Assembly: GCA_964450715.1 (NCBI GenBank)
Contig: CAYVFC010000016.1
Coordinates: forward strand, 1-58,677
Length of the DNA: 58,677 bases
From: an uncultured Sandaracinaceae bacterium
GTDB lineage: Bacteria > Myxococcota_A > Polyangia > Polyangiales > JAFGIB01
Direction of reading: 5' to 3'
The notes beneath the pieces were generated by a model. That model did no database searches and was not told the DNA's origin. It was given only the letters and a program-made list of their open reading frames with translations. Positions 10,608-47,034 of the stretch are shown in pieces (the first letter of the stretch is position 1; each line of letters starts with the position of its first letter). The position numbers were made by a program, and so were the translations under genes.

Positions 10608-11366
10608 ATGTCGGCCGCCTCGAAGATCGAGTGGACGGAAACCACCTGGAATCCAGTACGCGGGTGCTCACGCGTTTCACCTGGATGCCAGACCTGTTAC
10701 GCCGAACGCATGGCACACCGTTTTAGCAGTCCTGGTATGCCTTACGAGCGGCTAACACGATCGTCCGCAAACGGGCCTAGATGGACCGGCCGACTTCGCA
10801 TCGTAGCTGACGCCATTGAAGAACCTCTTCGGTGGAGGAGGCCCCGGCTGGTCTTCGTTAACTCGATGTCCGACCTTTTCCACGAAGGTCTTCGGGATGA
10901 CGTCATAAAAGAAGTTTTCGAGACCATGGAACGCGCGCACTGGCATACGTTTCAAGTACTCACGAAGCGTGCAGACCGCCTAGCTGAGATGGCGCAGGAT
11001 TTGCGTTGGCCGACCAATATTTGGATGGGAGTTAGCGTAGAAACAGCGGACTACCTTTGGCGTGTTGACAAACTCCGAAGTGTACCGGCCGCTATTCGTT
11101 TCGTATCGATGGAACCTCTGCTTGGGCCGCTCCCGTCGCTCTCGCTTAGAAGAATTCATTGGGTAATCGTAGGAGGCGAGTCTGGACCCGGATCACGACC
11201 TATGGAAGAGGTTTGGGTACGAGGTATTCTAGAGCGTTGCCGAAGGGCCTCAGTACCTTTCTTCTTCAAACAGTGGGGAGGCGTTAGAAAAAACCGACTA
11301 GGACGGTGCCTCGACGGCCGTACCTACGACGAAATGCCGGAACCGCTAGAGCCAGTCTGGCAGTAA
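10608..11366 (+). CDS. phage Gp37/Gp68 family protein (DUF5131)
   Basis: N-terminal IEWTETTWNPVRGCSRVSPGCQTCYAE signature. AGGAGA RBS upstream of ATG 10608. The longer ORF start at 10374 overlaps tRNA-Glu and is rejected. Confidence 0.7.
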   Translation: MSAASKIEWTETTWNPVRGCSRVSPGCQTCYAERMAHRFSSPGMPYERLTRSSANGPRWTGRLRIVADAIEEPLRWRRPRLVFVNSMSDLFHEGLRDDVIKEVFETMERAHWHTFQVLTKRADRLAEMAQDLRWPTNIWMGVSVETADYLWRVDKLRSVPAAIRFVSMEPLLGPLPSLSLRRIHWVIVGGESGPGSRPMEEVWVRGILERCRRASVPFFFKQWGGVRKNRLGRCLDGRTYDEMPEPLEPVWQ

Positions 11367-11370
11367 CGCA

Positions 11371-12249
11371 ATGAATCCTGCATCCAAGAACGACTGCCCT
11401 CACTGTGGAACCAGGCAAGAAAACGGCAACTGCCCTGAGCCGCTCGACGATGGGCACGCCGTCCAATGCGTCGGTGGTTGGGCTCAATGGAAGCATCATT
11501 ATCTGAGCCAGTATATCGACGCGACGTGGAGAACCCGCGTAAAATACTTGCCCCCGAACGGTACGGGAGGAGCTGCCTATATCGATCTTTTCGCGGGACC
11601 GGGCCGGGCTCGGATACGTGATACCGGCGAGGTCATTGACGGTAGCCCTCTTATCGCGATGAGCCACGAGAAGGCCCCTTTCTCGAAAATCCTTCTCTGC
11701 GACCTAGAAAGCGACAACGTTACGGCACTGAAGGAACGATCTCGCCGATACGGAGACCGTGCAGAGGTTTTCAGCTTAGACTCTAACGCTGAGACTTCGG
11801 CCATTATCAATGCTATTCCGAACCTAGGACTAAATCTAGCTCTCGTAGATCCATTTCGACCGCGTGATCTGAAGTGGACCACGATCGAGAAGCTGGCAAA
11901 TCTCCAACGAATGGACTTGATTATAAACTTCGCCACAGGATTCATAAGACGCAATCTATTCGATTCTCCTGGATACGATCGCGTAGTTGACGAGATGCTT
12001 CCCTCCGATAGCGCGTGGAGGACTGCCGTTAGATCGACGAAAGAAGTGTCTAGGTTAATCGAATACTTCCGTAACGGATTGATCGATCTCGGATACGACG
12101 AATCTTGTGTTCGTTGCATTCCGGTTACGAATCGAAGAAACGTCGTGCTGTATCATCTGGTATTCGCGTCGAAACGCGATTTAGGTACCAGAATCTGGAA
12201 CAGCATCGCGCGCTCCGACCCGACCGGACAACGAGATTTTGGTTTCTAG
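11371..12249 (+). CDS. three-Cys-motif partner protein TcmP (methyltransferase-like)
   Basis: Starts 4 nt after the Gp37/Gp68 stop. N-terminal CPHCG...NGNCPEP Cys cluster, HWKHHYL, and an IDLFAGPG Rossmann motif I typical of SAM-dependent methyltransferases. Confidence 0.6.
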   Translation: MNPASKNDCPHCGTRQENGNCPEPLDDGHAVQCVGGWAQWKHHYLSQYIDATWRTRVKYLPPNGTGGAAYIDLFAGPGRARIRDTGEVIDGSPLIAMSHEKAPFSKILLCDLESDNVTALKERSRRYGDRAEVFSLDSNAETSAIINAIPNLGLNLALVDPFRPRDLKWTTIEKLANLQRMDLIINFATGFIRRNLFDSPGYDRVVDEMLPSDSAWRTAVRSTKEVSRLIEYFRNGLIDLGYDESCVRCIPVTNRRNVVLYHLVFASKRDLGTRIWNSIARSDPTGQRDFGF

Positions 12250-12283
12250 ATACTCGGGGACCCGCGTCCTTGAACAGAAGTAG

Positions 12284-12356
12284 TGTCCCCGGCGGGAATC
12301 GAACCCGCATCTGCTGGTCGAGAGCCAACCATCCTGAGCCGTTAGACGACGGGGAC
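12284..12356 (-). tRNA. tRNA-Glu (anticodon CTC)
   Basis: GTCCCCGTCGTCTAACGGCTCAGGA... resembles bacterial tRNA-Glu. Anticodon loop CTCTCGA, T-arm GCGGGTTCGATTCCCGC. Confidence 0.7.
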
Positions 12357-12369
12357 GTTGTCGGAGGGG

Positions 12370-12440
12370 TGCGACTGACCGGAATCGAACCGGTTCTTCC
12401 GCCGTGGCGGGGCGGCGTGCGGCCGGAACACCTCAGTCGC
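12370..12440 (-). tRNA. tRNA-Gly (anticodon GCC, C33 non-canonical)
   Basis: Acceptor GCGACTG/CAGTCGC, anticodon stem CCGCC/GGCGG with loop CCGCCAC, T-arm ACCGGTTCGATTCCGGT. Confidence 0.6.
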
Positions 12441-12582
12441 AACGGCGGAGAGCAGAGGAGTCGAACCTCGACGCCGAAGCGCCTGCCGGGTAGCGGCCGG
12501 CCGTGACGCCACCGTCACTGTGCTATCCCTGTTCGCCACTCACCTCGGTGGCGGAAGGTGGAGGAGTCGAACATGACTGTAG

Positions 12583-12632
12583 CCGTGCAAAGCGGAGCGG
12601 ACGCCAGTCCGCGGAGCTGCACGGGTATAGTC
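12583..12632 (-). repeat. conserved structured hairpin motif, copy 1 (core AGCGGAGYGGACGYCAGTCCRCGGAGCTG)
   Basis: Plus-strand sequence ccgtgcaAAGCGGAGCGGACGCCAGTCCGCGGAGCtgcacgg. The outer stem and the inner GCGGAC/GTCCGC stem both pair, with covariation relative to copies 2 and 3. Confidence 0.6.
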
Positions 12633-12741
12633 CTGTCGACGGGTCGGAGCGAAGCGGAGACCCTAGTCAACCCCTACGTCGGAACGTCCCCGGATTTCGA
12701 GACCGGTGTGGCACCGCTGCCACGTCACCTTCCATTCACGG

Positions 12742-12828
12742 GGCGGAAGCCGGAGGTCTCGATCCCCATGCCTACTGGCACGCGCCCGCTTCCAACGGGG
12801 CCCGAGTCCCACTCGGTTCAGCTTCCGC
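12742..12828 (-). tRNA. tRNA-like, Ser-type (anticodon GGA?) with long variable arm and aberrant T-arm
   Basis: Acceptor GCGGAAG/CTTCCGC, candidate anticodon loop TTGGAAG, long variable stem TGCC-AGTA-GGCA. The T-arm is degenerate, so this may be a pseudo-tRNA. Confidence 0.35.
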
Positions 12829-12842
12829 TTTGCGATGTAAGG

Positions 12843-12916
12843 TCGGGATGGTGGGCTTCGAACCCACGGCCTCCTGCTCCCGAAGCAGGCGCGCTCCCAG
12901 ACTGCGCCACATCCCG
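12843..12916 (-). tRNA. tRNA-Pro (anticodon CGG)
   Basis: Acceptor CGGGATG/CATCCCG, D-arm GCGCAGTCTGGGAGCGC, anticodon stem CCTGC/GCAGG with loop TTCGGGA, T-arm GTGGGTTCGAAGCCCAC. Confidence 0.75.
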
Positions 12917-13052
12917 TAAATACTTCTAGCGGCTAGTGCTATAAGATCCCCGGGGGAAGACAGCGGCGTCAGCGCGTCCCTGAATTCTTGACCTGAATTC
13001 GCGACCGCGTCAGACGCACCACGCGTCTGTCTTCACCCCGGGGGAGTCGAAC

Positions 13053-13595
13053 TCAGTTGCGCGGCTCATCCGAGTCCTCCTCCAGCGCCCCGTGCCAGTA
13101 CAACCAGTTGGTCCAGGCCTCGGGGATGGTGCACGCGGGGTCGATCCTGAAGGCGACCACCGGAAGCCATCTGGGCTTTTCCGGCTGCTTCAGAAGCCGC
13201 ATGCCGGCCTGCTCGGGGGTCCGGTGACCCTTGCGCCCGTTGCAGCGGTAGCAGGCCATGACGACATTCTCCCACCTGGTCTTTCCGCCCTGGGAGCGGG
13301 GAACCACGTGGTCGTACGTCAGCTTGCTGAGCGGGGACTTTCTCCCGCAGTATTGGCAGCGAAAACCGTCGCGCGTGGCGACGTTCATCCGCGAGAACTT
13401 CACCCCTCGTCTGCCCCGGATCGCGCGCAACAGGCGAACGACCGCGGGCATCTTGATGGTGAAGGTCACGGAACGGACGTCCTCGTCGTACTCCTCGATA
13501 ACCTCGACCTTGCCGTCGAAGAGCATGAGAACGGCGCGCTGCCAGCTAACGACACGGTGGGGCTGATACCCCTGATCCAGTACGAGCGTTCGCAT
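13053..13595 (-). CDS. HNH endonuclease
   Basis: CQYCG...YDHVVPRSQGG...WENVVMACYRCNGRKG is an HNH motif with a zinc-binding Cys pair. AAGGAGG RBS upstream of ATG 13595. Embedded in the tRNA array. Confidence 0.85.
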   Translation of the reverse strand: MRTLVLDQGYQPHRVVSWQRAVLMLFDGKVEVIEEYDEDVRSVTFTIKMPAVVRLLRAIRGRRGVKFSRMNVATRDGFRCQYCGRKSPLSKLTYDHVVPRSQGGKTRWENVVMACYRCNGRKGHRTPEQAGMRLLKQPEKPRWLPVVAFRIDPACTIPEAWTNWLYWHGALEEDSDEPRN

Positions 13596-13618
13596 GTTGC
13601 ACCTCCTTTTTCTATCTG

Positions 13619-13692
13619 CACTGGAGGGTGCGGACGGCGAGATTCGAACTCGCACTTGCCTGGGCTTGAATCAGGTGCCTCTGCCGATTGGG
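13619..13692 (-). tRNA. tRNA (anticodon ambiguous, CAA or TCA; short variable arm)
   Basis: Acceptor GCGGACG/CGTCCGC, D-arm GCCCAATCGGCAGAGGC, T-arm GCGAGTTCGAATCTCGC. The anticodon stem has an A-C mismatch. Confidence 0.55.
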
Positions 13693-13720
13693 CCACGTCC
13701 GCTCCATGCCGTTCCTGGCG

Positions 13721-13807
13721 CCTAGTCTGGTGCTGGGGACAGGAGTCGAACCTGCACGGCCACTATGGACCACCGGAGTCTGAGTCCGGCGCGTATTCCT
13801 GTTCCGC
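13721..13807 (-). tRNA. tRNA-Leu (anticodon CAG), long variable arm
   Basis: Acceptor GCTGGGG/CCCCAGC, anticodon stem CCGGA/TCCGG with loop CTCAGAC, an 18-nt variable arm, T-arm GCAGGTTCGACTCCTGT. Confidence 0.7.
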
Positions 13808-13819
13808 CACCCCAGCGTC

Positions 13820-13894
13820 CATGCTCGAGTGCCCACGGGAAGATTCGAACCTCCACTGTACGGATTCTTAGTCCGCTGCCTCTGCCGGGTTGGG
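13820..13894 (-). tRNA. tRNA with anticodon AAG (Leu-type anticodon but short variable arm; non-canonical)
   Basis: Acceptor GCCCACG/CGTGGGC, D-arm GCCCAACCCGGCAGAGGC, anticodon stem GCGGA/TCCGT with loop CTAAGAA, T-arm GGAGGTTCGAATCTTCC. Confidence 0.55.
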
Positions 13895-13899
13895 CTACG

Positions 13900-14070
13900 T
13901 GGGCCTGGTGCGAGCGGCCGGAGTCGCACGTGGTCGAAAATGTGCAAAGCGGAGTGGACGTCAGTCCACGGAGCTGCACATTTTCGGACGCGATACGGGT
14001 CGAAGACCCTAGTGCACCGGCACTGTCCCGGGTTTAAATCGAGCGCCTCTGCCGATTGGGCTACGCTCGC
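13900..14070 (-). ncRNA. aberrant 171-nt tRNA-like element with large insertion containing hairpin-motif copy 2; CCA encoded
   Basis: Perfect acceptor pair GCGAGCG...CGCTCGC-A-CCA. The tRNA-like D-arm GCCCAATCGGCAGAGGC is followed by about 100 nt with no canonical anticodon arm, then a T-loop-like TGCGACTCCGGCC. Confidence 0.45.
13937..13990 (-). repeat. conserved structured hairpin motif, copy 2
   Basis: gaaaatgtgcaAAGCGGAGTGGACGTCAGTCCACGGAGCtgcacattttc. It has an 11-bp outer stem and an inner GTGGAC/GTCCAC stem. Confidence 0.6.
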
Positions 14071-14076
14071 ATTGGG

Positions 14077-14149
14077 TACGGGGGGCCGGAGTCGAACCGG
14101 CGACCTCCTGTTTGTAAGACAGGCGCTCTTCCAGTTGAGCTACCCCCGC
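14077..14149 (-). tRNA. tRNA-Val (anticodon TAC)
   Basis: Acceptor GCGGGGG/CCCCCGT, D-arm GCTCAACTGGAAGAGC, anticodon stem CCTGT/ACAGG with loop CTTACAA, T-arm GCCGGTTCGACTCCGGC. Confidence 0.75.
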
Positions 14150-14156
14150 ATCTTGG

Positions 14157-14225
14157 TCCCGCCGAGCGGAATCGAACCGCCACCGTCGCCCTTATGAGAG
14201 GCGCGTCCGACCTTCGGACGGCGGG
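14157..14225 (-). tRNA. tRNA-Met (anticodon CAT), short D-arm, CCA encoded
   Basis: Acceptor CCCGCCG/CGGCGGG followed by ACCA, anticodon loop CTCATAA, T-arm GGCGGTTCGATTCCGCT. 69 nt. Confidence 0.6.
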
Positions 14226-14226
14226 T

Positions 14227-14298
14227 TGCGGGGGCAAGAATCGAACTTGCGGCGCTCCGGCGTATGAAACCGGGCTGGGATACCAGCACCCTCCCCGC
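14227..14298 (-). tRNA. tRNA-Met/Ile2-type (anticodon CAT), second copy
   Basis: Acceptor GCGGGG(A)/(C)CCCCGC, anticodon stem CCGGT/GCCGG with loop TTCATAC, T-arm GCAAGTTCGATTCTTGC. Confidence 0.6.
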
Positions 14299-14310
14299 GG
14301 CAACCCGCGG

Positions 14311-14384
14311 CGTCCCCGGAAGGAGTCGAACCTTCACGAAACCCGGCTTCGGAGACCGGCGCTCTTCCATTGAGCTACGAGGAC
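14311..14384 (-). tRNA. tRNA-Arg (anticodon CCG)
   Basis: Acceptor GTCCTCG/CGGGGAC, D-arm AGCTCAATGGAAGAGC, anticodon loop CTCCGAA, T-arm GAAGGTTCGACTCCTTC. Confidence 0.75.
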
Positions 14385-14409
14385 GAAAAGATACCTGACG
14401 CCTGCGCGG

Positions 14410-14482
14410 CACCCGCGGGGAGACTCGAACTCCCACCCTCCTGGTTCGTAGCCAGGCGCTCGTCCGCTTGAGCTTCGCGGGC
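14410..14482 (-). tRNA. tRNA-Arg (anticodon ACG)
   Basis: Acceptor GCCCGCG/CGCGGGT, D-arm GCTCAAGCGGACGAGC, anticodon stem CCTGG/CCAGG with loop CTACGAA, T-arm GGGAGTTCGAGTCTCCC. Confidence 0.75.
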
Positions 14483-14486
14483 ATGG

Positions 14487-14559
14487 CTCCCCCGACAGGA
14501 TTCGAACCTGCAAAGGCCGGCTTAGAAGACCGGTGCCCGTCCGATCGGGCTTCGGGGGC
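14487..14559 (-). tRNA. tRNA-Arg (anticodon TCT), CCA encoded
   Basis: Anticodon stem CCGGT/GCCGG with loop CTTCTAA, T-arm GCAGGTTCGAATCCTGT, acceptor ...CGGGGGA-G-CCA with a G1-A72 mismatch. Confidence 0.65.
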
Positions 14560-14587
14560 GACTTCCGTTAGGCGTACGTATCGACGG

Positions 14588-14658
14588 AGTGGCGGGAGGG
14601 AATCGAACCCTCGCATACCGGACTTGCAAACCGGTCCCTGCCCATTCGGATCCGCCAC
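14588..14658 (-). tRNA. tRNA-Cys (anticodon GCA)
   Basis: Acceptor GTGGCGG/CCGCCAC, anticodon loop TTGCAAG, T-arm GAGGGTTCGATTCCCTC. Confidence 0.6.
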
Positions 14659-14727
14659 GTAGCGGGCCCTGCCAGGCGGGAGCGTTTCAGGTCACACGGT
14701 CGTTATCCGTTGTACTCCCGCAAGGCA

Positions 14728-14799
14728 TAAGGCCCGGTGCGCCCGGCGGGATTCGAACCCGCTCCACCTGATTGGAAGCCAGGCGTGCTGCCTTGAACA
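14728..14799 (-). tRNA. tRNA-Gly (anticodon TCC)
   Basis: Acceptor GCGTCCG/CGGGCGC, anticodon stem CCTGG/TCAGG with loop CTTCCAA, T-arm GCGGGTTCGAATCCCGC. Confidence 0.7.
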
Positions 14800-14805
14800 C
14801 CTCGG

Positions 14806-14877
14806 ACGCAATTCGTGGAGCCGCGGGGAATCGAACCCCGGTCTTCCGCTTGCAAGGCGGATGCTCTCCCGGTTAAG
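14806..14877 (-). tRNA. tRNA-Ala (anticodon TGC)
   Basis: Acceptor GGGGCCG/CGGCTCC with the G3-U70 Ala identity pair, anticodon stem TCCGC/GCGGA with loop CTTGCAA, T-arm CGGGGTTCGATTCCCCG. Confidence 0.75.
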
Positions 14878-14886
14878 CGACGGCCC

Positions 14887-14958
14887 CTCTGGTCGGTAGG
14901 CCGGGCGCGAGTCGAACGCGCATCGGCCGCTTATAAGGCGACTGCTCTCTCCCTTGAG
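14887..14958 (-). tRNA. tRNA-Ile (anticodon TAT), unusual isoacceptor
   Basis: Acceptor GGGCCGG/CCGGCCT, D-arm GCTCAAGGGAGAGAGC, anticodon stem GTCGC/GCGGC with loop CTTATAA, T-arm GCGCGTTCGACTCGCGC. Confidence 0.6.
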
Positions 14959-14963
14959 CTACC

Positions 14964-15035
14964 GGCCCTTCGGTCCTCCCGGAAGGACTTGAACCTTCAT
15001 TTCCCGGTCATCAGCCGAGCGTCCTGGCCATTGGA
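14964..15035 (-). tRNA. tRNA-Ile (anticodon GAT)
   Basis: Acceptor CCTCCTG/CGGGAGG, anticodon stem CTCGG/CCGGG with loop CTGATGA, T-arm GAAGGTTCAAGTCCTTC. Confidence 0.7.
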
Positions 15036-15039
15036 CGAC

Positions 15040-15114
15040 AGGAGGGCGGGCTGGTCGGACGGACTCGAACCGACTTGCACCAGACTCACATTCTGGGCCC
15101 TCGACCACTTCGGG
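15040..15114 (-). tRNA. tRNA-His (anticodon GTG) with G-1
   Basis: 8-bp acceptor G-CTGGTCG/CGACCAG-C, anticodon stem CCAGA/TCTGG with loop ATGTGAG, T-arm GTCGGTTCGAGTCCGTC. Confidence 0.7.
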
Positions 15115-15159
15115 ATCGACCAGCATAGTCGTTCAGGCAGCGATACATCCCTCGACGGA

Positions 15160-15291
15160 TTCGCCTTGGTGTCACGGACCGGAATCGAACCGTTCGGCCG
15201 TCCCACGTCCGCTGCGCGGCCGTGAGTTTTTTGGACAGCCTCACCTCCTGGGTTTCAACCAGGCGCTCTTACCGTAGTGAGCTACCGTGAC
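15160..15291 (-). tRNA. tRNA-Phe (anticodon GAA) carrying a ~55-nt structured insertion between anticodon stem and T-stem
   Basis: Acceptor GTCACGG/CCGTGAC-A-CC, D-arm GCTCACTACGGTAAGAGC, anticodon stem CCTGG/CCAGG with loop TTGAAAC. A GC-rich insert GGTGAGGCTGTCC-A6-CTCACGGCCGCGCAGCGGACGTGGGACGGCC follows, then T-arm ACGGTTCGATTCCGGT. Confidence 0.6.
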
Positions 15292-15299
15292 GATGACGG

Positions 15300-15370
15300 C
15301 GCCACGTACGGGAATCGAACCCATCTCGACCGGTCGACAACCGGCTCGCATCCCAGATGCGCAACGTGGC
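15300..15370 (-). tRNA. tRNA-Asp (anticodon GTC)
   Basis: Acceptor GCCACGT/ACGTGGC-G, D-arm CGCATCTGGGATGCG, anticodon stem GCCGG/CCGGT with loop TTGTCGA, T-arm ATGGGTTCGATTCCCGT. Confidence 0.75.
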
Positions 15371-15420
15371 TTCATCACCCGCTCCTCCAAGACCCGGCAC
15401 GCCGTGGAGGAATCGACCGC

Positions 15421-15480
15421 CGTTGAAAACGTCCGGAGCGGAGTGGACGTCAGTCCACGGAGCTGGACGTTTTCAACGGT
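15421..15480 (-). repeat. conserved structured hairpin motif, copy 3 (inside a degenerate tRNA-like region, 15371-15555)
   Basis: gttgaaaacgtccGGAGCGGAGTGGACGTCAGTCCACGGAGCTggacgttttcaac, with a 13-bp outer stem. Flanked by a Trp-like anticodon hairpin (CTCCAAA) and a T-arm-like GGCGGTCGATTCCTCC. Confidence 0.6.
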
Positions 15481-15560
15481 GGCGACGGAGCGCGAAGCGC
15501 GGAGTCAACCCCCCGCGGTCGGGTTTGGAGCCCAACCTGCGCCCAGCGCCCGACGTCTAG

Positions 15561-15633
15561 CTCCGGAGGCAGGATTCGAACCTGCGGTTTGCCGGTTAAC
15601 AGCCGGCCGCCTTTCCGCTTGGCTACCCCGGAA
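15561..15633 (-). tRNA. tRNA-Asn (anticodon GTT)
   Basis: Acceptor TCCGGGG/CTCCGGA, D-arm GCCAAGCGGAAAGGC, anticodon stem GCCGG/CCGGC with loop CTGTTAA, T-arm CGCAGGTTCGAATCCTGC. Confidence 0.7.
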
Positions 15634-15714
15634 TAGTGTGCGGCGCCCGGTCGCCACTCCGGGCGCCCGCACGAAAGCCTTCTCGATTGTCAAAGAACAC
15701 GCTAGCTATGCCGG

Positions 15715-15785
15715 CTCGGGAGGAGGGATTCGAACCCCCGTCGACTTATCCAGAGTCAGTTGTCCTTCCGTTGGACGACTCCCGA
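15715..15785 (-). tRNA. non-canonical tRNA (anticodon uncertain, possibly GGA)
   Basis: Acceptor TCGGGAG/CTCCCGA, D-arm GTCCAACGGAAGGAC, T-arm GGGGGTTCGAATCCCTC. The anticodon arm is irregular (TGACT-CTGGATA-AGTCG). Confidence 0.45.
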
Positions 15786-15880
15786 ATGCTTCAAAGATCG
15801 CTCGAACAAATTTTCAAGAATCTAAACTCCGTTTTCAGGGTGCACTTCGCCGTCCGCCTTCAACGCGGTTGAAGGCGCAG

Positions 15881-15953
15881 TGGATCCGGTGGGCGTCGAA
15901 CCCACACGCGTCCGGTTAAGAGCCGGGTGCTCTGCCTGTTGAGCTACGGATCC
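15881..15953 (-). tRNA. tRNA-Lys (anticodon CTT)
   Basis: Acceptor GGATCCG/CGGATCC, D-arm GCTCAACAGGCAGAGC, anticodon loop CTCTTAA, T-arm GTGGGTTCGACGCCCAC. Confidence 0.7.
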
Positions 15954-15957
15954 GTTG

Positions 15958-16030
15958 TGGGGCCGGTGGGAATCGAACCCACAATCGTCCGGTTAAAAGC
16001 CGGCTGCTCTTCCTGTTGAGCTACGACCCC
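15958..16030 (-). tRNA. tRNA-Lys (anticodon TTT)
   Basis: Acceptor GGGGTCG/CGGCCCC, D-arm GCTCAACAGGAAGAGC, anticodon loop CTTTTAA, T-arm GTGGGTTCGATTCCCAC. Confidence 0.7.
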
Positions 16031-16096
16031 GTTGGGCGCAGCTCTCGTTTTTGTATGTGTAACTTCAATAACATAGCCTCCCTCCGTGTGACCTGG

Positions 16097-16179
16097 TGGG
16101 GCCGGCAGGATTCGAACCTGCATAGCGACCAGCGCGCCCGGTTTACAGCCGAGTTGGGATTCCTGCTCCCCTCGACCCC
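16097..16179 (-). tRNA. tRNA-Tyr (anticodon GTA), long variable arm, CCA encoded
   Basis: Acceptor GGGGTCG/CGGCCCC-A-CCA, D-stem GGGA/TCCC, anticodon stem CTCGG/CCGGG with loop CTGTAAA, 15-nt variable arm, T-arm GCAGGTTCGAATCCTGC. Confidence 0.7.
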
Positions 16180-16960: not shown

Positions 16961-17806
16961 ATGCAACGATTGGTTAGACGTTTTTCCGACGCGGGACTGG
17001 TATTGATACCGGCGGGCCAGCCTATCGGTGGGCCTCAAAACGAATCCGTTTTCGGAATGACGATTCTCCGAAAACTTCGGAAGAACACCCGTTCTGAGTA
17101 CTTCTCAATCTGGCCGGGAGACTCTTCTAATCGTCTGGAGGTCGTCAGCGTCGATAAACGGAAGCGCCATGTCGTTTTACTGGTCCACGAGCCCCGCCGT
17201 GAGGTACATCATCGTTTCACCAAGGCGCAGGCAAAACGAACCTCCATTCCAACGGCGGCCACCGGAGTCAAGCGTAACAAGGACGGAAGCGTCGAGTTCG
17301 TTACCCTGAGCCCTTCCCGTAAGCGCCACTTTCTGTGTGGAGTGGATGAGCGCCAGCTGTTCATCGCTCAGCTGCCTCGGGGGGTGACCACCGTACGCGA
17401 CGCCCACGGGTCGCTCGAATCGGTGGAGTTGACGCTTTTTGAAGGGCGAGCGCCCGGGAAGACGGTCCGGCAGGGCGAGTGGTTCTTTCTCAATCCAACG
17501 CCCGAAGAAAGCGAGCAACTCGAGAGGACCATTTCCGATCATTCGGTGGTCGTTCAGAAGAAGGCGTCGATCGGTCGGGTCGCCGGTCGAAACTTCGGCA
17601 ATCCACATACAGCGGACGAGGTCGTTGTGCTCGCGGCACCAAGGCTGGAACACGGCCATCCGGTCCGCGAACGCCCCGACGTGTTTGTCCGCGGTAGAGT
17701 ACGACATCCGGATCACAAGACGGTCTCGTTCAAGACCTGGCGTAAGGTCATTCGAAACGCCGAAACCGACGAAGGACGGATGGAAGGCATCGACTGGATC
17801 GACTGA
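16961..17806 (+). CDS. hypothetical protein (first gene of a three-gene cassette)
   Basis: 281-aa ORF with no recognisable motif. Followed 48 nt later by two nucleotidyltransferase genes on the same strand. Confidence 0.5.
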   Translation: MQRLVRRFSDAGLVLIPAGQPIGGPQNESVFGMTILRKLRKNTRSEYFSIWPGDSSNRLEVVSVDKRKRHVVLLVHEPRREVHHRFTKAQAKRTSIPTAATGVKRNKDGSVEFVTLSPSRKRHFLCGVDERQLFIAQLPRGVTTVRDAHGSLESVELTLFEGRAPGKTVRQGEWFFLNPTPEESEQLERTISDHSVVVQKKASIGRVAGRNFGNPHTADEVVVLAAPRLEHGHPVRERPDVFVRGRVRHPDHKTVSFKTWRKVIRNAETDEGRMEGIDWID

Positions 17807-17854
17807 GCGCAACAGTACCTGTTCTCGACAACTCGTAATAGTATTGCGTTTACC

Positions 17855-18661
17855 GTGTCGACCGCATACCGGAGTCTCATGAAAGCGAGCCAAATAGACG
17901 AGGTCTGGTCGATGCTCGACCGCTCGGCGCTGGCGGATGTAGCCAGAACCGGCCCAGAGGCCATATTCGCGACCATCAGTGGTGCGCATCTCTACGGGTT
18001 CGCCTCGAATAACAGTGACGTGGATCTGCGCGGCGCCTTCATGCTTTCGGCTCGGGAAATGCTCGGGCTTCGTGCGGTAGAAGAGACGGTATCGGTCAGC
18101 GACCAGCGTGCCGGTATGGATCTAGACTGGGTTGCGCATGACATCCGGAAGTTTGCGCGCATGATGACGAAGCACAACGGCTACGTGCTGGAGCAGCTGT
18201 TCTCTCCGTTGGTAGTCATCACCACGCCTGAACACGACGAGCTACGCGAGCTCGGAAGGGGCTGCGTAACGCGCCCGACCGTCCGGCATTACCTGGGTTT
18301 TGCCCAGGGCCGTCGTAAACGATTGAAAGAGCCCGATCCGACCGTCAAGCATCTGCTCTATGCGTACCGGGTCTACCTGACCGGGATACACGCGATGGGT
18401 ACCGGTGAGATCGAAGCGAACATTCGGAGCCTCAACGAGCGCTTTCGCCTAGAGCAGATCGACGAGTTGGTCGCCCGGAAAACGGAGGGAACGGAGAAGA
18501 TGCTCCTCGCCGCCGGCGAAGTCGAACAGCACGAGCGGTTCTTCGACGAGCTCGAGAGCAGGCTCAACGAAGCGCACGAGAGGAGCCGGTTGCCCGAGGA
18601 AGCCACGACCGCGCGCGACCTGGACGATTTCGTCGTCCGGATCCGGCTGAAAAGGGCGTAG
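17855..18661 (+). CDS. nucleotidyltransferase-fold protein (PF10127/RlaP-like)
   Basis: ISGAHLYGFASNNSDVDLRGAF matches the GS-x9-13-D-x-D(E) pol-beta-type NTase signature of PF10127-type predicted nucleotidyltransferases. Confidence 0.6.
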   Translation: MSTAYRSLMKASQIDEVWSMLDRSALADVARTGPEAIFATISGAHLYGFASNNSDVDLRGAFMLSAREMLGLRAVEETVSVSDQRAGMDLDWVAHDIRKFARMMTKHNGYVLEQLFSPLVVITTPEHDELRELGRGCVTRPTVRHYLGFAQGRRKRLKEPDPTVKHLLYAYRVYLTGIHAMGTGEIEANIRSLNERFRLEQIDELVARKTEGTEKMLLAAGEVEQHERFFDELESRLNEAHERSRLPEEATTARDLDDFVVRIRLKRA

Positions 18662-18663
18662 CG

Positions 18664-19809
18664 ATGACCGGATTTCCGCTACGCCGTCATACGATCTTCG
18701 TGGCGCTGGCGGGTAGCCATGCGCACGGAACGGCTCGCAGTGGATCCGACGTGGACCTACGCGGCGTGTGCGTCGCGCCGCTTCGCATCCGGGCATCCTT
18801 CCGCGAGAGCTTCGAGCAGTACGAGGGAGAGATGGATCAGGAGCTACGGGAGGCGGTGTTCGCCGGGCTGCGAGGTCATCCCACCGCGTCACAGGGACTG
18901 TCGGACAAGATCGACTGCACGATCTTCGACGTGGCCAAGTTCGTGGGGCTGTGCGCGAACGCCAATCCGAATGCGCTGGAGATTCTCTACGCGGATAGGC
19001 GCGACTGGGTATTTAAGACATCAGCCTGGGAGCGCCTGTATGCCGAGCGCCGTCGATTTCTATCGCTGAAGGTCCAACAGACATACGCGGGCTATGCCAT
19101 GGCTCAGCTCAAGAGAATCAAGAGCCACCGGTCCTGGCTTCTGAATCCTCCGGCGAAGAAGCCAACGAGGACGGACTTCGGCCTACCCGAGCAGGGCACG
19201 CTCAACCAGGACGATCGCAATCGCATCGAGCAGGGGATCGCCGAGAAGATCAGTGGATGGGGAATCGAGACACTCGAAATGCCCAAGGCGACCCGCATCG
19301 CTCTCAACGAGCGCCTCGAAGCTTTCCGGAGCGACGTGTTGGCCGCAGAGGCCGAGGAGGTCGCAGACAGGCTCCGCGAAACCGCTGCCCGCAATCTAGG
19401 GATATCGAAACAGCTCATGGAAGCGCTGGAAGGCGAGCGAAAATACAGGGGCGCGCTCAAGCGCTGGGACTCCTACCAGACCTGGAAGCAGCAGCGGAAT
19501 CCGGATAGAGCTAAACTCGAAGCCCAGTTTGGCTACGACACCAAACATGGGATGCACCTGTTACGGCTCATGCGCACGGGACTCGAAATTCTTCGGACCG
19601 GCGAACTTCAGGTTCGCCGCCCGGATGCAGCGGAACTCAGTGCCATCCGCGATGGAGCCATGACTTACGGTGAGCTACTGGCTGAGGCCGAACATTTGCG
19701 GGAAGGAATGGATACTGCGGCCGGAAATGCGGACCTGCCTGCAGACGTCGACTACGAAGCTCTGGACGAGTTGCTGTACACGCTGATTCGTGACGAGGGT
19801 TGCTGCTAA
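18664..19809 (+). CDS. nucleotidyltransferase-fold protein (PF10127/RlaP-like) with C-terminal helical extension
   Basis: ALAGSHAHGTARSGSDVDLRGV carries the same NTase signature. It starts 3 nt after the previous stop, and the two proteins are paralogues. Confidence 0.6.
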   Translation: MTGFPLRRHTIFVALAGSHAHGTARSGSDVDLRGVCVAPLRIRASFRESFEQYEGEMDQELREAVFAGLRGHPTASQGLSDKIDCTIFDVAKFVGLCANANPNALEILYADRRDWVFKTSAWERLYAERRRFLSLKVQQTYAGYAMAQLKRIKSHRSWLLNPPAKKPTRTDFGLPEQGTLNQDDRNRIEQGIAEKISGWGIETLEMPKATRIALNERLEAFRSDVLAAEAEEVADRLRETAARNLGISKQLMEALEGERKYRGALKRWDSYQTWKQQRNPDRAKLEAQFGYDTKHGMHLLRLMRTGLEILRTGELQVRRPDAAELSAIRDGAMTYGELLAEAEHLREGMDTAAGNADLPADVDYEALDELLYTLIRDEGCC

Positions 19810-20248: not shown

Positions 20249-21745
20249 TCACCTGAAAAGGTCTTCGACGGTCACGACGTTGTCGACGAGATCCTGGGAC
20301 CAGGTGTTCCTCTTGAGACCGTGCATCGTGACCAGAGCCAGGAGGATCTTTTTTTTCGTCCCCGTCCTCTTCTCGAAGACGTCGATCTTGCTCTTCAACT
20401 CTCGTGCGTAAACCTTGTCGATCGCGAACTCGTCGGCGCAATACTTCGCCTCGCAAAGCGTGATGACTCCGTCGGCGCGATCGAACAGCAGGTCGATCTG
20501 CGCTCCCCTTTCGGCCGTCCTTCCCTTTTCGGACACGTATCGCCAGCTGCCGGTCTCAGCGGCCACCGACTGGATACCGAGCGCCTCGCGTATCTGCCGG
20601 GCGTGCTTGAGACAGACGCCTTCGAACGCGTGGCCGGCCCAGGCGCGGTAGGCCGGGGTTCGCGATTTCGCAATCCAGTAGTCGGCGGAGTCCGCTCGAA
20701 ATACTCGCGCTGGAGCCGGCTCGATCCATTTCAGGTAAAACGAGATGTATTCGTCGATGAGCCGATAGGACACTTTCTTCGCCCGGTATCCGTATGGCGT
20801 GGCCGCGGCGATGAAACCGGCCTCCTCTAGCTCGCGTAATCGTTTCTTCAGCCGACCGCCGGAGGGTATACCCGTCAACCGCACCAGCTCTTCGCGGTCG
20901 ATGCCGCTTCCTTTGCTGGCGATGGCCCGGATGACCTTCTCGTAGACATCGGCAGAGCGGAATAGCGAGGCGAACAGCCGCTCGAACTCGTCGAACAGAG
21001 AACCGTTGCGGTCGAAACAGATCGCGCCGATGTTCTGTGCCGCGGATCGTCCCCGCCCAACCTGCATCAGGTAGTAGGGAATGCCTCCGAGCGCCAGATA
21101 TATTTCGACGACCTGAACCGGGTTGAGCGACACGCTGCGAGCGGCCAGGAACTCGCGCACTTCCGATAGCGTGAAAGGCATCAGCCGTATCCGTCTGGTG
21201 ATGCGGTTGTGAAGCCCGCCCTTGGCATGGATCAGATTATCGAGAATCCAGGAAGCCGCGCTTCCGCAGACGATCAACCGTATCTGGCGCAGCCGGCTCA
21301 TTCGCGTATTCCAGTAGTGGTCGAGCGCCTGCAAGAGTCGCGATCTGGGCGTCGCCAGCCAGGGAAGCTCGTCGAGGAAAACGACGATCGTCCGTTTGCT
21401 GTGCTGCTCGATGTACCGATCGATCGCGTCGCAAAGAAGCCCGAGCGCGCTTTCCCAGGATTCGAGATCGGGCAGCGGTCTTCCGTCGTAGAAGACGCGT
21501 TCAAGCTCCCGTTTGAAATGAAATAGCTGGATTGCCGTCGAGGCGTCCTTCTGCCCGGTCGCCGCGAAAAACAGGTCGCAGCGCGGTTCGCAGTACTCGC
21601 GGATCAGATGGGTCTTTCCGACTCGCCGCCGGCCGTAGATGGCGAGAAACTCAGCGGAACCAGATCGGAGAAGATCGTCGAGAATCCTCTTTTCGGGCCG
21701 CCTTCCGATAACGGCGCGATTCGAGCTTTCAATAGATTTGGCCAC
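20249..21745 (-). CDS. ATP-binding protein, archaeal-ATPase (PF01637) + DUF234 family
   Basis: Walker A GRRRVGKT, Walker B FLDELPW, and a C-terminal DUF234-like region. Confidence 0.8.
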   Translation of the reverse strand: MAKSIESSNRAVIGRRPEKRILDDLLRSGSAEFLAIYGRRRVGKTHLIREYCEPRCDLFFAATGQKDASTAIQLFHFKRELERVFYDGRPLPDLESWESALGLLCDAIDRYIEQHSKRTIVVFLDELPWLATPRSRLLQALDHYWNTRMSRLRQIRLIVCGSAASWILDNLIHAKGGLHNRITRRIRLMPFTLSEVREFLAARSVSLNPVQVVEIYLALGGIPYYLMQVGRGRSAAQNIGAICFDRNGSLFDEFERLFASLFRSADVYEKVIRAIASKGSGIDREELVRLTGIPSGGRLKKRLRELEEAGFIAAATPYGYRAKKVSYRLIDEYISFYLKWIEPAPARVFRADSADYWIAKSRTPAYRAWAGHAFEGVCLKHARQIREALGIQSVAAETGSWRYVSEKGRTAERGAQIDLLFDRADGVITLCEAKYCADEFAIDKVYARELKSKIDVFEKRTGTKKKILLALVTMHGLKRNTWSQDLVDNVVTVEDLFR

Positions 21746-22236: not shown

Positions 22237-22816
22237 CACTTACGCTCTTCTCCGTTTGCTCTTGGCCCACTTTGTGGCCCACTTCGAGGCCCACCTCCTG
22301 TTCCGTCGAAGTCTCCCAAGCTAGTTCGGGGATGGCTTGGTTCAAGGGGACAAGCTCACCCAGTCCAAGCTCCTCGAAGTTGCGGGCGGTACGCTTGTAG
22401 CGGTTGATCATCGCGCTCGACTTGTGCCCCGTCCGGTCCGCGATCCACGACTCACTTCGGCCATCACAAGCGTAATGGTCACGAACGTCACCCGAAGGTC
22501 ATGCTGCAGCCGTCGACCACGAAGCTCTGGACGAGCTGTTGTTTTCGGTGATTAGTGACGATGAAGCCGATCGGGCATTTCCGGGGCGTTTCGACCCCAC
22601 CTGATTCCCGGCGCGGTTTTCGATATCAGGCAATGAAACGATGAACCGAGCGCTATCGAAAGTCGGCGCCTCGTCTAAGTCGGCCCAGCGTGACTTTCTA
22701 ATGAGGAGAGAAGCCGTTGGCTAAGTGTAACACCTCGATATCATGGGGAATATCGCGTGTGCGGCTAAATGTAAATACGATTGACAATTAGCAGAAACCG
22801 TGCTCGAGTGAGCAGA

Positions 22817-24001
22817 ATGATTGAACGAACGCTCCGAAGCGCTCTTCTCGGGCTCGCCGAACGGCACCCGGTCGTCACGGTCACCGGGCCGCGTCAGTCC
22901 GGAAAGACCACGTTATGCCGGGCCGCATTCCCGGACAAACCCTACGTCTCCCTGGAAGACCCGGAAACGCGTGCGTTCGCCTTGAACGACCCGCGCGGCC
23001 TACTCTCGCAATACAGCGGGGGAGCCGTCTTCGACGAGGTGCAGCGCGCCCCGGAGATGACATCTTACCTTCAAGGGATTGTCGATGCCGAACCCGCTCC
23101 GGGGCGTTTCATTCTGACCGGTTCACAACATCTCGGCTTGCACGGCCAGGTATCCCAGTCGCTCGCCGGGCGCACCGCGCTCATCGATCTACTACCCCTG
23201 TCGTGGACGGAGGTCCAACGGTTCCCCGAACATCCAGACACACTATTCGAGGCCCTGGTCGCGGGCGGATATCCCGCCGTATTCGATCGGGGAGTGCCTC
23301 CCGGAGAGTGGATCGCTTCTTATGTCCGTACCTACGTCGAACGGGACGTGCGTCAGATAGTAAACGTAACCGACCTCCTCGCCTTTCAAACCTTCCTCGG
23401 GCTGTGCGCCGGCCACGCCGGCAATCTAGTCAATCTCTCCGAGCTGGGCTCTTCGGCCGGGATATCCCATAATACGGCCCGGGAGTGGCTGTCGGTGCTG
23501 GAGGCGGGGTTTATCGTGTTTCGGTTGCCGCCGTTTTTCGCCAACCTCAACAAGCGGTTGGTGAAGACTCCGAAACTGTACTTCCACGACACCGGTCTAC
23601 TCTGCTACCTGCTCGGCGTTCGCGAACCCAAGGAACTGGTACGCCATCCACTTCGAGGAGCTGTTTTCGAGAACTGGGTGACCACCGAGATCATCAAAGC
23701 CCATACCCATCGTGCGACGACGCCGCGTCTGAGTTTTTACCGCGACCGGGCCAAGATGGAAGTCGACATGGTACTTGAACGCGTCGATCGAATCGTCGCC
23801 ATAGAGATCAAATCGGGGCAGACCGTCGCCGAGGATTTCTTCAAGTCGCTGACAGCCTTCGCTCAACTAATGCACAACGCCGATGAGTCGCGACCGGTGC
23901 AATCCTATCTCGTAACCGGAGGCGATCAGTACCAGGAACGTTCGACAACCACCGTGCTTCCCTGGCACGCGGTCGCGGATCGAGACTGGAGCGGTGGATA
24001 G
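22817..24001 (+). CDS. AAA-family ATPase (AAA_14 + DUF4143)
   Basis: Walker A GPRQSGKTT, Walker B VFDEVQ, and a C-terminal DUF4143-like region. ATG 22817 is preferred over the TTG at 22781. Confidence 0.75.
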   Translation: MIERTLRSALLGLAERHPVVTVTGPRQSGKTTLCRAAFPDKPYVSLEDPETRAFALNDPRGLLSQYSGGAVFDEVQRAPEMTSYLQGIVDAEPAPGRFILTGSQHLGLHGQVSQSLAGRTALIDLLPLSWTEVQRFPEHPDTLFEALVAGGYPAVFDRGVPPGEWIASYVRTYVERDVRQIVNVTDLLAFQTFLGLCAGHAGNLVNLSELGSSAGISHNTAREWLSVLEAGFIVFRLPPFFANLNKRLVKTPKLYFHDTGLLCYLLGVREPKELVRHPLRGAVFENWVTTEIIKAHTHRATTPRLSFYRDRAKMEVDMVLERVDRIVAIEIKSGQTVAEDFFKSLTAFAQLMHNADESRPVQSYLVTGGDQYQERSTTTVLPWHAVADRDWSGG

Positions 24002-24040: not shown

Positions 24041-25411
24041 CTACTTGAGATGGCTGTTGTGGCCGTACTCGAACTCGTCGGTCCGGGTACACAGACCGCA
24101 GCTGTCACCCAGCAGCATATCGCGCGCCGCCGGATCGTCGTTCAGCGTGTACTGGAACCAAGCCAGAGCGGGCTCCCAGACCCGTTCGGGTTGCTCCATG
24201 ACGGTCAGGTGCCCGGTCATGCCACCGCCGGTGAGCAGAACCTGGTGGTAGTACAGCCAGGCCGCGGGCTGAGACGCGAGGTTGACCTCGGACGAAAGGG
24301 TCATGACGCTCGGGTTGCCGATGTCCCGCTCCCCCGATATCGCCATCACCGGCTTGTTGACCGCCGCGGCATCGCCGCCGTTCCACAAGATGACGGACTT
24401 GATCCGCGGGTCGCTCGAAGCGGCCTGGGTCCCGGAGGCCCCCTGCGAGTGGCCCATCACTCCGATCCGGTCCAAGTCGAGCTTCTGGTAGTAGACGCTA
24501 TCGGGGTCGTCGTTCAGCTCAGCGGCCAGATCCAGCGCGTGAAGTATCTCGATTCCGCTGCCCGTCCAGCGGCTATTGGCGGCAAAGACGTAGAAGCCAT
24601 GCGACGCTACCTTGACCAGAAAGGAACCGTACCCGCCGGCCTGGCCGCAGGTGCCGTTACCCCAGGTGATGACCGGGTACTTCTCACCTTCCCGGGTGCA
24701 GGCGGGCCGGAATACGGTGTACAGGGTGAGGTCTTGACCCCTCAGGTCTAGCACGTCGGCGGTCACCGACGCGGGTTCCATGAACGCGCCGGCGGCGATG
24801 TCGCAGGTCAACTCGCCCGGATTCATTACATTGGCGAAATCTGCTCCCTCGTTCCACTCCACATACCCGCCGTACGGACCGGCCAAGAGCTCGGTATTGC
24901 CCCAGGTGCTGCCGTCGGTCAGCGGGATGGTCGGAGTGATCATGCTTGAGCAGGCGGTTTCCATCTCGTCATACATGCACCGTTGCTTCAGCGATGCCAT
25001 GCACGCGTCGAACTCGGCGTCGCCACTGCCGGCAATACCGGCGTCTACGCTGCCGGCGGTATCAGCGTCGTCGCTGCTTCCGGCCACGGCGGCCCTACCT
25101 GCCGCGCCGGCTTGTCCGCCGGACCCAGCGGCGGACTCGATGCCGCCCGCACCGGCAGCCGGTTGCGTACTGCCGGCCTCCGCGAACGGTTCGGTCTGGC
25201 CCCCTGCACCGGCTGCGACCCCTCCCCCGCCGCCGCCTATACCCACCCACGGGCCCACGCCGGAACCGGCAATGCCCTGGAAACCGGCGACGTTGCCGGC
25301 GGCGTTCTGGTCGGTACCTGTGCCGTCGCTGCTACACCCGGTCAGGGCGAGTATCGCGAAGAGACCCACTGCCAGACACCTCGTACGGGAAGATCCTCGA
25401 CTGCAAATCAT
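24041..25411 (-). CDS. secreted lipoprotein with Gly/Ala-rich linker and C-terminal alpha/beta hydrolase domain (GHSQG)
   Basis: Lipobox LALTGC, a long GGGxAAG low-complexity linker, then a hydrolase domain with YPVITWGNGTCG and the nucleophile elbow GHSQGA. AAGGAG RBS. Paralogue of the gene at 28462-29616. Confidence 0.7.
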   Translation of the reverse strand: MICSRGSSRTRCLAVGLFAILALTGCSSDGTGTDQNAAGNVAGFQGIAGSGVGPWVGIGGGGGGVAAGAGGQTEPFAEAGSTQPAAGAGGIESAAGSGGQAGAAGRAAVAGSSDDADTAGSVDAGIAGSGDAEFDACMASLKQRCMYDEMETACSSMITPTIPLTDGSTWGNTELLAGPYGGYVEWNEGADFANVMNPGELTCDIAAGAFMEPASVTADVLDLRGQDLTLYTVFRPACTREGEKYPVITWGNGTCGQAGGYGSFLVKVASHGFYVFAANSRWTGSGIEILHALDLAAELNDDPDSVYYQKLDLDRIGVMGHSQGASGTQAASSDPRIKSVILWNGGDAAAVNKPVMAISGERDIGNPSVMTLSSEVNLASQPAAWLYYHQVLLTGGGMTGHLTVMEQPERVWEPALAWFQYTLNDDPAARDMLLGDSCGLCTRTDEFEYGHNSHLK

Positions 25412-47030: not shown

Positions 47031-47034
47031 CTCA

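Follow-up and report, generated by a model that had tools for sequence, protein, structure and literature searches.

The 58,677-nucleotide stretch of contig CAYVFC010000016.1 that was analyzed here (the window) carries at positions 16961-19809 three co-directional open reading frames (ORFs): ORF1, which encodes a member of a large uncharacterized protein family, and RlaP-A and RlaP-B, which encode two paralogous nucleotidyltransferases (NTases). We found that ORF1 tracks tRNA arrays, not RlaP, and that the conserved unit is the RlaP-A/RlaP-B pair, not the three genes together. These findings make it probable, in our judgment, that the 2.85-kb stretch joins two independently conserved units rather than forming a single three-gene system, and that it belongs to a tRNA-array island of approximately 8.6-19.8 kb with RNA-repair accessory genes. 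The three genes are the following, with positions counted from the first nucleotide of the window:

16961-17806, plus strand: ORF1, 281 aa, a member of a tRNA-array-associated family with a conserved core at about residues 121-281
17855-18661, plus strand: RlaP-A (NTase-A), 268 aa from a GTG start, a canonical short PF10127 nucleotidyltransferase
18664-19809, plus strand: RlaP-B (NTase-B), 381 aa, a long PF10127 paralog, of a type that phages also have, with a divergent C-terminal half

This arrangement is present as given in a preliminary description of the DNA, made from the sequence alone, which placed ORF1 48 nt upstream of the two NTase genes. The spacers measure 48 nt between ORF1 and RlaP-A and 2 nt between RlaP-A and RlaP-B, and a consensus scan detected no terminator-like site at either junction. 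The automatic gene caller put the start of RlaP-A 57 nt more 3′, and conservation among the orthologs already begins 5′ of that start.

To survey gene neighborhoods, we collected loci through either ORF1 or NTase-B, and all partner frequencies given here are conditional on that ascertainment. The RlaP-B survey covered 80 metagenomic loci seeded on NTase-B and three long contigs, with 80 NTase-B loci from IMG/VR besides, the "viral" status of IMG/VR contigs being taken at face value. When the count was restricted to close ortholog loci with at least 900 nt upstream of NTase-B (n = 28), RlaP-A was found directly upstream of RlaP-B in 26, and in the three long contigs an RlaP of 263-265 aa lies directly upstream of NTase-B and abuts or overlaps it. 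The members of this RlaP-B orthologous group share approximately 60% identity and are 375-398 aa long, and the few that come with a named source are mostly from Polyangiaceae and other Myxococcota. The more distant relatives of RlaP-B are solitary, both the metagenomic ones below approximately 45% identity and those at all 80 IMG/VR loci. The 2-nt spacer suggests that RlaP-A and RlaP-B are translationally coupled, and since the pairing is nearly obligate and the genes abut or overlap, the data suggest that the two proteins form a heteromeric enzyme or act as two enzymes with divided labor.

The preliminary description had taken the three genes for one operon or cassette, and reciprocal neighborhood surveys contradict this. 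A profile of ORF1 detected no homolog in any of the 83 metagenomic or long-contig RlaP-B loci or in the 80 viral ones, and ORF1 is thus absent from 163 of 163 loci. Conversely, an RlaP gene was found near ORF1 at one of 80 genomic loci (L077) and at two of 79 viral loci (L182 and L198), and no protein-coding neighbor of ORF1 was common to more than nine of the 80 genomic loci. On these surveys, we reject the idea that ORF1 and the RlaP pair are conserved partners. A single 416-kb viral contig, IMGVR_UViG_3300028840_002431 (loci L181 and L286), carries both an ORF1 homolog with five tRNAs nearby and a solitary NTase-B-type RlaP, the two lying approximately 50 kb apart.

What does accompany ORF1 is a cluster of tRNA genes. 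Among cellular loci, at least three tRNAs were present at 16 of 80 ORF1 loci compared with one of 59 control loci, most of which were RlaP-B loci (Fisher p = 1.1e-3). Among viral loci, where tRNAs were counted within 8 kb of the ORF1 homolog and many of the IMG/VR contigs are 100-530 kb long, the corresponding figures were 33 of 79 ORF1 loci and seven of 80 NTase-B control loci (Fisher p = 1.3e-6). The clusters at the 16 genomic loci comprise 3-34 tRNA genes with the ORF1 homolog inside or beside them, and tRNAs flank it on both sides at ten genomic and 17 viral loci. The tRNAs within 1.5 kb of the ORF1 homolog are almost all on its own strand, the ratio of same to opposite strand being 118:2 in genomes and 106:2 in viral contigs. 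The 16 genomic loci include ones from cultured Planctomycetota such as Novipirellula, Rhodopirellula, Stieleria and Roseiconus, and from Verrucomicrobiota, a gammaproteobacterial metagenome-assembled genome (MAG), a Mycobacterium MAG and Terriglobales. A slot directly after tRNA-Arg(UCU) is where the ORF1 homolog lies both in the gammaproteobacterial MAG and in several genera of Planctomycetota. The array-linked homologs are full-length and have all the family motifs. Most of the full-length Myxococcota and Asgard homologs have no tRNA cluster nearby.

ORF1 itself had no match in Pfam, NCBIfam, PADLOC or PHROGs, and it represents a large uncharacterized family with no recognizable fold. A word-indexed search returned 690 homologs and an exhaustive profile search 2,627 cluster representatives at 50% identity, 1,268 of these at E <= 1e-10; almost all are single-domain proteins of 260-320 aa. 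The genomic loci seeded on ORF1 span Myxococcota, Planctomycetota, Verrucomicrobiota, Acidobacteriota, Asgard archaea and others. Neither of two queries matched any of 50,697 deposited phage genomes, and the array-type query had no match in 72,556 plasmids. Across 146 cellular and viral sequences, the residues that are at least 90% conserved (L125, G127, D129, E130, F134, A148, L152, R170-Q-G-E-W-F-F176, H216, G245, H252, W260, N266 and E268) all lie in the C-terminal 160 residues. The AlphaFold2 model of ORF1 is mostly beta, with a mean predicted local distance difference test score (pLDDT) of 90.8; Foldseek gave no match to it in the PDB at E <= 1e-3 and nothing meaningful in BFVD, and a search of the ORF1 profile against PDB sequences also returned nothing. 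A ligase or phosphoesterase fold had been raised as something to look for in this protein, and no similarity of the ligase, 2H, HD or metallophosphatase type was detected. The domain fusions that offer clues to function are one fusion of a family member to a PTH2 peptidyl-tRNA hydrolase domain, which scores above the Pfam threshold, and two extensions without a Pfam match. The most likely substrate of ORF1 is tRNA or a tRNA precursor, which it would process, heal at the ends or cleave. Its closest relatives, at 52-57% identity, come from three metagenomic loci (L085, L086 and L087) with many small ORFs, no RlaP, and kinase-like, NADAR, adenylosuccinate-synthetase-like (possibly PurZ-like) and DnaJ-like neighbors, a neighborhood that looks like a phage or mobile-element genome.

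The proposal that both NTases are paralogous Pol-beta NTases of the PF10127/RlaP family was confirmed, since both exceed the Pfam gathering score of 23 bits. RlaP-A scores 149.8 bits (E = 1.4e-43), with residues 33-261 covering profile positions 17-248 of 249, and RlaP-B scores 70.6 bits (E = 2.2e-19) over residues 10-152 only (profile positions 20-140). The RlaP family owes its name to its RNA-ligase gene neighborhood. In PHROGs, the match of RlaP-B to phrog_388 ("nucleotidyltransferase"; E = 1.2e-56) covers the full length of the protein, including its C-terminal half, which has no Pfam match. The RlaP-A and RlaP-B families have only the NTase core in common (hhalign probability 96.6%, 29% identity over 123 columns), and RlaP-B differs from RlaP-A by an insertion of approximately 20 residues in the core and by an unrelated C-terminal half of approximately 230 residues. 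The signature GS-x(10)-SDxDLRG that had been ascribed to both is recognizable in RlaP-B, as G17-S18, nine residues, and S28-D29-V-D31-LRG, but not in RlaP-A, where G43-A44 stands in place of G-S. The catalytic aspartates are kept in both proteins, as D55, D57 and D96 across 33 orthologs of RlaP-A and as D29, D31 and D89 across the ortholog alignment of RlaP-B. Because each retains all three, neither looks dead, and the idea of one paralog being a dead enzyme was discarded. In Pfam and NCBIfam, the NTases had no match to the CCA-enzyme or poly(A) polymerase head-domain families, and a sub-threshold hit to NTP_transf_2 was seen for RlaP-B only.

The statement that no RlaP member has been characterized is out of date, as both the activity of the Pseudomonas proteins PfRlaP and PaRlaP and a crystal structure have been published (Carruthers, Fatma & Huang, bioRxiv December 2025, PMC12776372; what we say of this and the other papers cited below refers to the portions of their text that were available). 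These enzymes add one or two nucleoside monophosphates (NMPs) to an RNA 3′-OH with little specificity for the nucleoside triphosphate (NTP), do not use DNA or proteins as substrates, and prefer the 3′ end of a mimic of a tRNA with a colicin-E5-type cleavage; over-damaged tRNA that has been treated in this way can, once ligated, regain aminoacylation (PMC12776372). In the 2.1-Å crystal structure of PfRlaP, the NTase domain and a C-terminal helical domain form a cleft, the chain closes with a C-terminal helix, and three aspartates are essential (PMC12776372). The RlaP product ends in a 3′-OH, whereas RtcB needs a 3′-phosphate or a 2′,3′-cyclic phosphate, and the authors postulate either an undiscovered RNA 3′-kinase or a nuclease that trims the extra nucleotide (PMC12776372). 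That RlaP restores nucleotides lost before ligation had been predicted earlier from comparative genomics (PMC7824862; PMC6514570). We found no mention of tandem RlaP paralog pairs in the available text of PMC12776372.

The pair in the window resembles the Pseudomonas RlaPs, which are encoded in rtcB-rlaP-rtcA operons, in its membership of PF10127, in the full-profile alignment of RlaP-A and in the three catalytic aspartates, and by analogy the template-independent addition of one or two NMPs to an RNA 3′-OH would be the expected chemistry here. It differs in comprising two divergent paralogs in almost obligate tandem, one of them with the core insertion and unrelated C-terminal half described above, and in having no RtcB, RtcA or RtcR nearby. 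A second likeness is to the Pnkp/Hen1 RNA-repair operons with RlaP (Burroughs & Aravind 2016, cited in PMC12776372), since orthologs of the pair lie directly upstream of Hen1 and Pnkp at L088, L101 and L106, and a Pnkp-like gene adjoins the pair at L104. Such ligase-type neighbors (Pnkp or Hen1/Pnkp) were found at four of the 26 pair loci with enough downstream sequence; in contrast to those operons, Pnkp and Hen1 are missing beside the pair in the window and at 22 of the 26 loci. RlaP-B is furthermore similar to the long RlaP-type NTases of phages that make up phrog_388, such as gp166 of Salmonella phage PVP-SE1 and the protein of Cronobacter phage GAP31, and relatives at 31-36% identity were found in 278 deposited phage genomes. 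The viral relatives differ from RlaP-B of the window in having no RlaP-A partner, at all 80 IMG/VR loci. The suggestion that the cassette re-adds CCA found no support, given the lack of a CCA-enzyme-family match and the low NTP specificity of the characterized RlaP, and nothing specific ties RlaP or ORF1 to CCA. A CCA end is encoded in only five of the 25 tRNA genes of the window.

The tRNA array that had been noted beside the three genes was confirmed, and it is accompanied by several features that recur at arrays elsewhere:

12283-16179, minus strand: tRNA array of 24 ARAGORN tRNAs, approximately 6 per kb, divergent from ORF1
13053-13655, minus strand: HNH endonuclease gene embedded in the array (PF14279/PF01844, E = 7e-17)
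10429-10501, minus strand: isolated tRNA-Glu(UUC) (ARAGORN; Rfam 73.4 bits)
8671-10176, minus strand: SPFH/Band-7 protein gene (PF01145, E = 5.5e-28)

With 24 co-oriented tRNAs in 3.9 kb, the array fits the definition of an array unit, which is at least 20 tRNAs at a density of at least 2 per kb (Tran et al. 2016, PMC4758250). Two further tRNA hits inside it, at 15170-15291 and 14588-14658 (both minus strand), were found by Rfam only and not called by ARAGORN; the first of these contains a large insertion or intron-like segment, as it spans 122 nt compared with the 71 positions of the tRNA model. Among the arrays, several tRNA-Leu genes, being only 73-77 nt long, lack the long variable arm. 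A tRNA-Ile with an encoded UAU anticodon lies at 14895-14968 (minus strand) and recurs across phyla at L058, L062, L065, L068, L070, L076 and L077; a genomically encoded UAU anticodon in tRNA-Ile is unusual in bacteria. Near the three genes, Rfam at gathering score gave tRNAs only and neither a Y RNA nor any other structured RNA, and a search for regulatory repeats between the array and ORF1 gave only short matches, in two copies and of a quality expected by chance. A DUF5131 gene (phage Gp37/Gp68-type; PF07505, E = 3.9e-95) and, 4 nt further on, a 292-aa ORF without a Pfam match occupy 10374-12249 (plus strand), the interval that separates the isolated tRNA-Glu from the main array. The true start of the DUF5131 ORF is probably more 3′, near residue 83, because its 5′ end overlaps the tRNA-Glu gene.

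Protein clustering confirmed by Pfam identified the recurrent partners at array loci as HNH (eight loci) and Band-7 (eight loci), both counts including the window, TROVE/Ro60 (seven loci), the 23S-rRNA-intervening-sequence protein (five loci) and RtcB (three loci), and the RlaP pair is found at arrays in the window, L077 and L099. In the Verrucomicrobiales locus L077, one strand carries in order an array, TROVE, the ORF1 homolog, HNH, a PhyH-like gene, Band-7, RlaP-A and RlaP-B. The 122-kb IMG/VR locus L198 has, likewise on one strand, an array, Band-7, an ORF of unknown function, GNAT, RlaP, tRNA-Lys, the ORF1 homolog, RtcB and HNH, and at L099 the RlaP pair is followed after approximately 400 nt by HNH and at least 14 tRNAs. 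The TROVE/Ro60-like genes adjoin ORF1 homologs in the array loci L058, L060, L062, L065, L070, L077 and L083, and no Y RNA was found at the Rfam gathering score in those of the TROVE/Ro60 array loci that were scanned. A further gene that reads as TROVE/Ro60-like stands beside an ORF1 homolog in the Anaeromyxobacteraceae locus L057 (6032-7873, minus strand), at which there is no tRNA array. The 23S-rRNA-intervening-sequence protein (PF05635, a four-helix bundle) is encoded next to Planctomycetota arrays at L076 (10138-10608, minus strand), L063, L064, L065 and L070.

Several of these partners have been described before. Band-7, Ro60/Y-RNA, RtcB and RlaP have been named as components of RNA-repair neighborhoods (Burroughs & Aravind 2016, as cited in bioRxiv 10.1101/312249, PMC6514570), and the long tRNA arrays (L-arrays) of cyanobacteria are induced by translational stress and enriched in nearby HNH, rtcB and other RNA-processing and translation genes (PMC8421152). 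The present array is like the cyanobacterial ones in having at least 20 co-oriented tRNAs at more than 2 per kb, a linked HNH gene and RNA-repair gene neighbors. In contrast to the published arrays of cyanobacteria and Firmicutes, those described here come from Myxococcota-like, Planctomycetota, Verrucomicrobiota and viral contigs, and the available portions of PMC8421152 and PMC4758250 list neither the ORF1 family nor the RlaP pair, Band-7 or Ro60 among the partners of arrays. The recurrence of Band-7, TROVE/Ro60 and RtcB at ORF1 array loci recalls the modules of Band-7 with b7a-tRNA and of Ro60 with Y RNA that are found by RtcB; the difference is that here the genes accompany entire tRNA arrays and not one tRNA-like RNA, and that no Y RNA was detected at the Rfam gathering score. 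At array loci with ORF1 homologs a tRNA gene usually lies just upstream of Band-7, and the isolated tRNA-Glu(UUC) of the window, which shares the strand of the Band-7 ORF and precedes it by 253 nt, is by analogy a candidate Band-7-associated tRNA. The guanine-plus-cytosine (GC) content of the region at approximately 10-24 kb is 0.57-0.60, and since this is below that of much of the flanking sequence (approximately 0.64), it suggests one acquired island.

Outside this island, the window contains a block at 45000-52000 with a GC content of 0.52-0.58 and a strongly negative GC skew, whose minus strand encodes two beta-ketoacyl synthases (47035-49586) and two radical-SAM proteins (49580-51702); the block is probably a biosynthetic cluster that was acquired separately. 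Two adjacent radical-SAM/SPASM genes at 38620-40781 (plus strand), flanked by ORFs without Pfam matches, are of a maturase type that we take to be associated with the biosynthesis of ribosomally synthesized and post-translationally modified peptides. Three paralogs of a PETase-like hydrolase are encoded at 24041-25411, 28225-29616 and 44222-45523.

Taken as two units in one island, the genes may be understood as follows. The RlaP-A/RlaP-B pair would act on RNA 3′ ends, as a heteromer or with divided labor. Because no ligase is encoded in the window, sealing would fall to a ligase elsewhere in the genome, or else the pair would work on 3′ ends for which no ligation is required. ORF1 would act, as a separate unit, on tRNA or tRNA precursors, and the island as a whole (the array, HNH, Band-7 with its adjacent tRNA, the RlaP pair and ORF1) could provide spare tRNAs together with RNA repair under ribotoxin or translational stress. 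The tRNA-repair theme of the preliminary description is supported, given that RlaP, an ORF1 homolog, Band-7 and HNH recur at arrays elsewhere with RtcB or Ro60 and given the published RlaP biochemistry (PMC12776372).

A number of observations weigh against this interpretation. The first tRNA of the array is 782 nt from ORF1, which is divergent from it, compared with the embedded, co-oriented placement that is usual for the family, and a matching arrangement, with a single divergent tRNA-Met, was seen beside the ORF1 homolog at two Myxococcota loci. With most of the genomic ORF1 homologs (64 of 80) lying away from tRNA clusters, the family cannot strictly depend on an array for its function, and the co-occurrence of RlaP with a tRNA array is rare (1/59 loci). 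The location of ORF1 only 48 nt 5′ of RlaP-A, on the same strand and with no predicted terminator, makes local co-transcription of the two possible. Pfam scans of all ORFs of at least 200 aa in the 58.7-kb window found no RtcB, Pnkp, Hen1 or other RNA ligase, so that a ligase encoded at some other place in the window was rejected, and 22 of the 26 pair loci likewise have no ligase-type neighbor nearby; the dependence of the pair on a ligase is for that reason an assumption. The island was probably acquired horizontally, to judge from the dip in GC content and by analogy, and for the array itself the signals of acquisition are this dip and the embedded HNH gene. The roles proposed for the pair and for ORF1 are drawn from sequence and genomic context.

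If the three genes were nevertheless one operon for one new system of tRNA repair, the end-healing or sealing activity that the two NTases lack would come from ORF1. We regard this as unlikely. The three genes are co-directional and closely spaced with no terminator-like site at the junctions, an ORF1 homolog and RlaP lie within a few kb of each other in two other lineages (L077 and L198), the constellation of Asp, Glu, His and Arg residues in ORF1 looks enzymatic, and one member of the family carries the PTH2 fusion. Yet none of the 163 NTase-B loci has an ORF1 homolog, RlaP occurs at only 1/80 and 2/79 ORF1 loci, the closest ORF1 relatives at 52-57% identity have no RlaP neighbor, and no ligase or phosphoesterase fold was detected in ORF1. 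There is perhaps a slightly smaller chance that ORF1 stands for a novel family of enzymes, with a novel fold, whose substrates are tRNA ends and whose genes are as a rule transcribed together with the tRNA arrays of bacteria and huge phages, and which possibly provides the missing step between RlaP and RtcB; at L198 the ORF1 homolog lies exactly between these two genes, and the invariant Arg, Gln, Glu, His and Asn residues may suit a cyclizing ribonuclease or a phosphotransfer enzyme. ORF1 could instead be a selfish or conflict element of the arrays, either a homing-type nuclease that spreads them, in the manner of the HNH and SegB genes, or a ribotoxin that cleaves tRNAs and for whose damage resistant tRNAs of the array compensate, with ORF1 as an addiction or host-shutoff device, and its adjacency to RlaP would then be incidental. 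Its homologs are indeed embedded in arrays beside HNH genes and patchily distributed over bacteria, Asgard archaea and viral contigs, a nuclease function would fit the conserved acidic, His and Arg residues of ORF1, and homing endonucleases have been documented next to tRNA arrays (PMC8421152). We nonetheless consider this improbable, because from one domain of life to another the motifs show a very strong conservation that homing endonucleases usually lack, the slot after tRNA-Arg(UCU) is fixed in several Planctomycetota genera and one gammaproteobacterial MAG, many family members are far from any tRNA gene, and no known nuclease fold was detected.

The genes have also been viewed as a novel anti-phage module, and a defense or abortive-infection cassette in a defense island, with the logic of NTase signaling or of a toxin-antitoxin system (for example with MNT-type antitoxins), seems to us very unlikely. 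The two stand-alone ATPases that adjoin the three genes do match PADLOC candidate families, as had been suspected; the longest ORF of the second one begins at 22781 and not, as given before, at 22817:

20249-21745, minus strand: ATPase (ATPase_2), PADLOC candidate family PDC-S27, E = 1.3e-168
22781-24001, plus strand: ATPase (AAA_14 and DUF4143), PADLOC candidate family PDC-S01, E = 2.3e-107

In addition, the MntA antitoxin model of NCBIfam matches RlaP-B weakly and below its threshold (E = 0.0023, 17.8 bits compared with a cut-off of 60). On the other hand, ORF1, RlaP-A and RlaP-B have no PADLOC match at E <= 0.1, there is no HEPN-like or other effector neighbor, the characterized RlaPs modify RNA 3′ ends and not proteins (PMC12776372), and the frequent occurrence of RlaP relatives in phages fits counter-defense or repair better than host defense. 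A known defense system in PADLOC-DB 2.0 was ruled out by the lack of a match for any of the three proteins. A type VII MNT/HEPN toxin-antitoxin system was also set aside, RlaP-B being below the MntA cut-off and without a HEPN-like neighbor.

We return to the reading of two units within a tRNA-array island. Judged against the searchable literature, the biochemistry of RlaP is known and the link of ORF1 to tRNA arrays is the new lead. The coupled pair of catalytically intact RlaP paralogs suggests a division of labor or a heteromeric repair enzyme. Genes of a family of approximately 2,600 clusters without a known fold or function emerge as a hallmark of the long tRNA arrays found in Planctomycetota, Verrucomicrobiota, other bacteria and large viral contigs, where they adjoin those for RtcB, Ro60, Band-7 and RlaP. 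Through such a dedicated array-linked protein, the processing, protection or repair of array tRNAs in RNA-targeting conflicts would become open to study.

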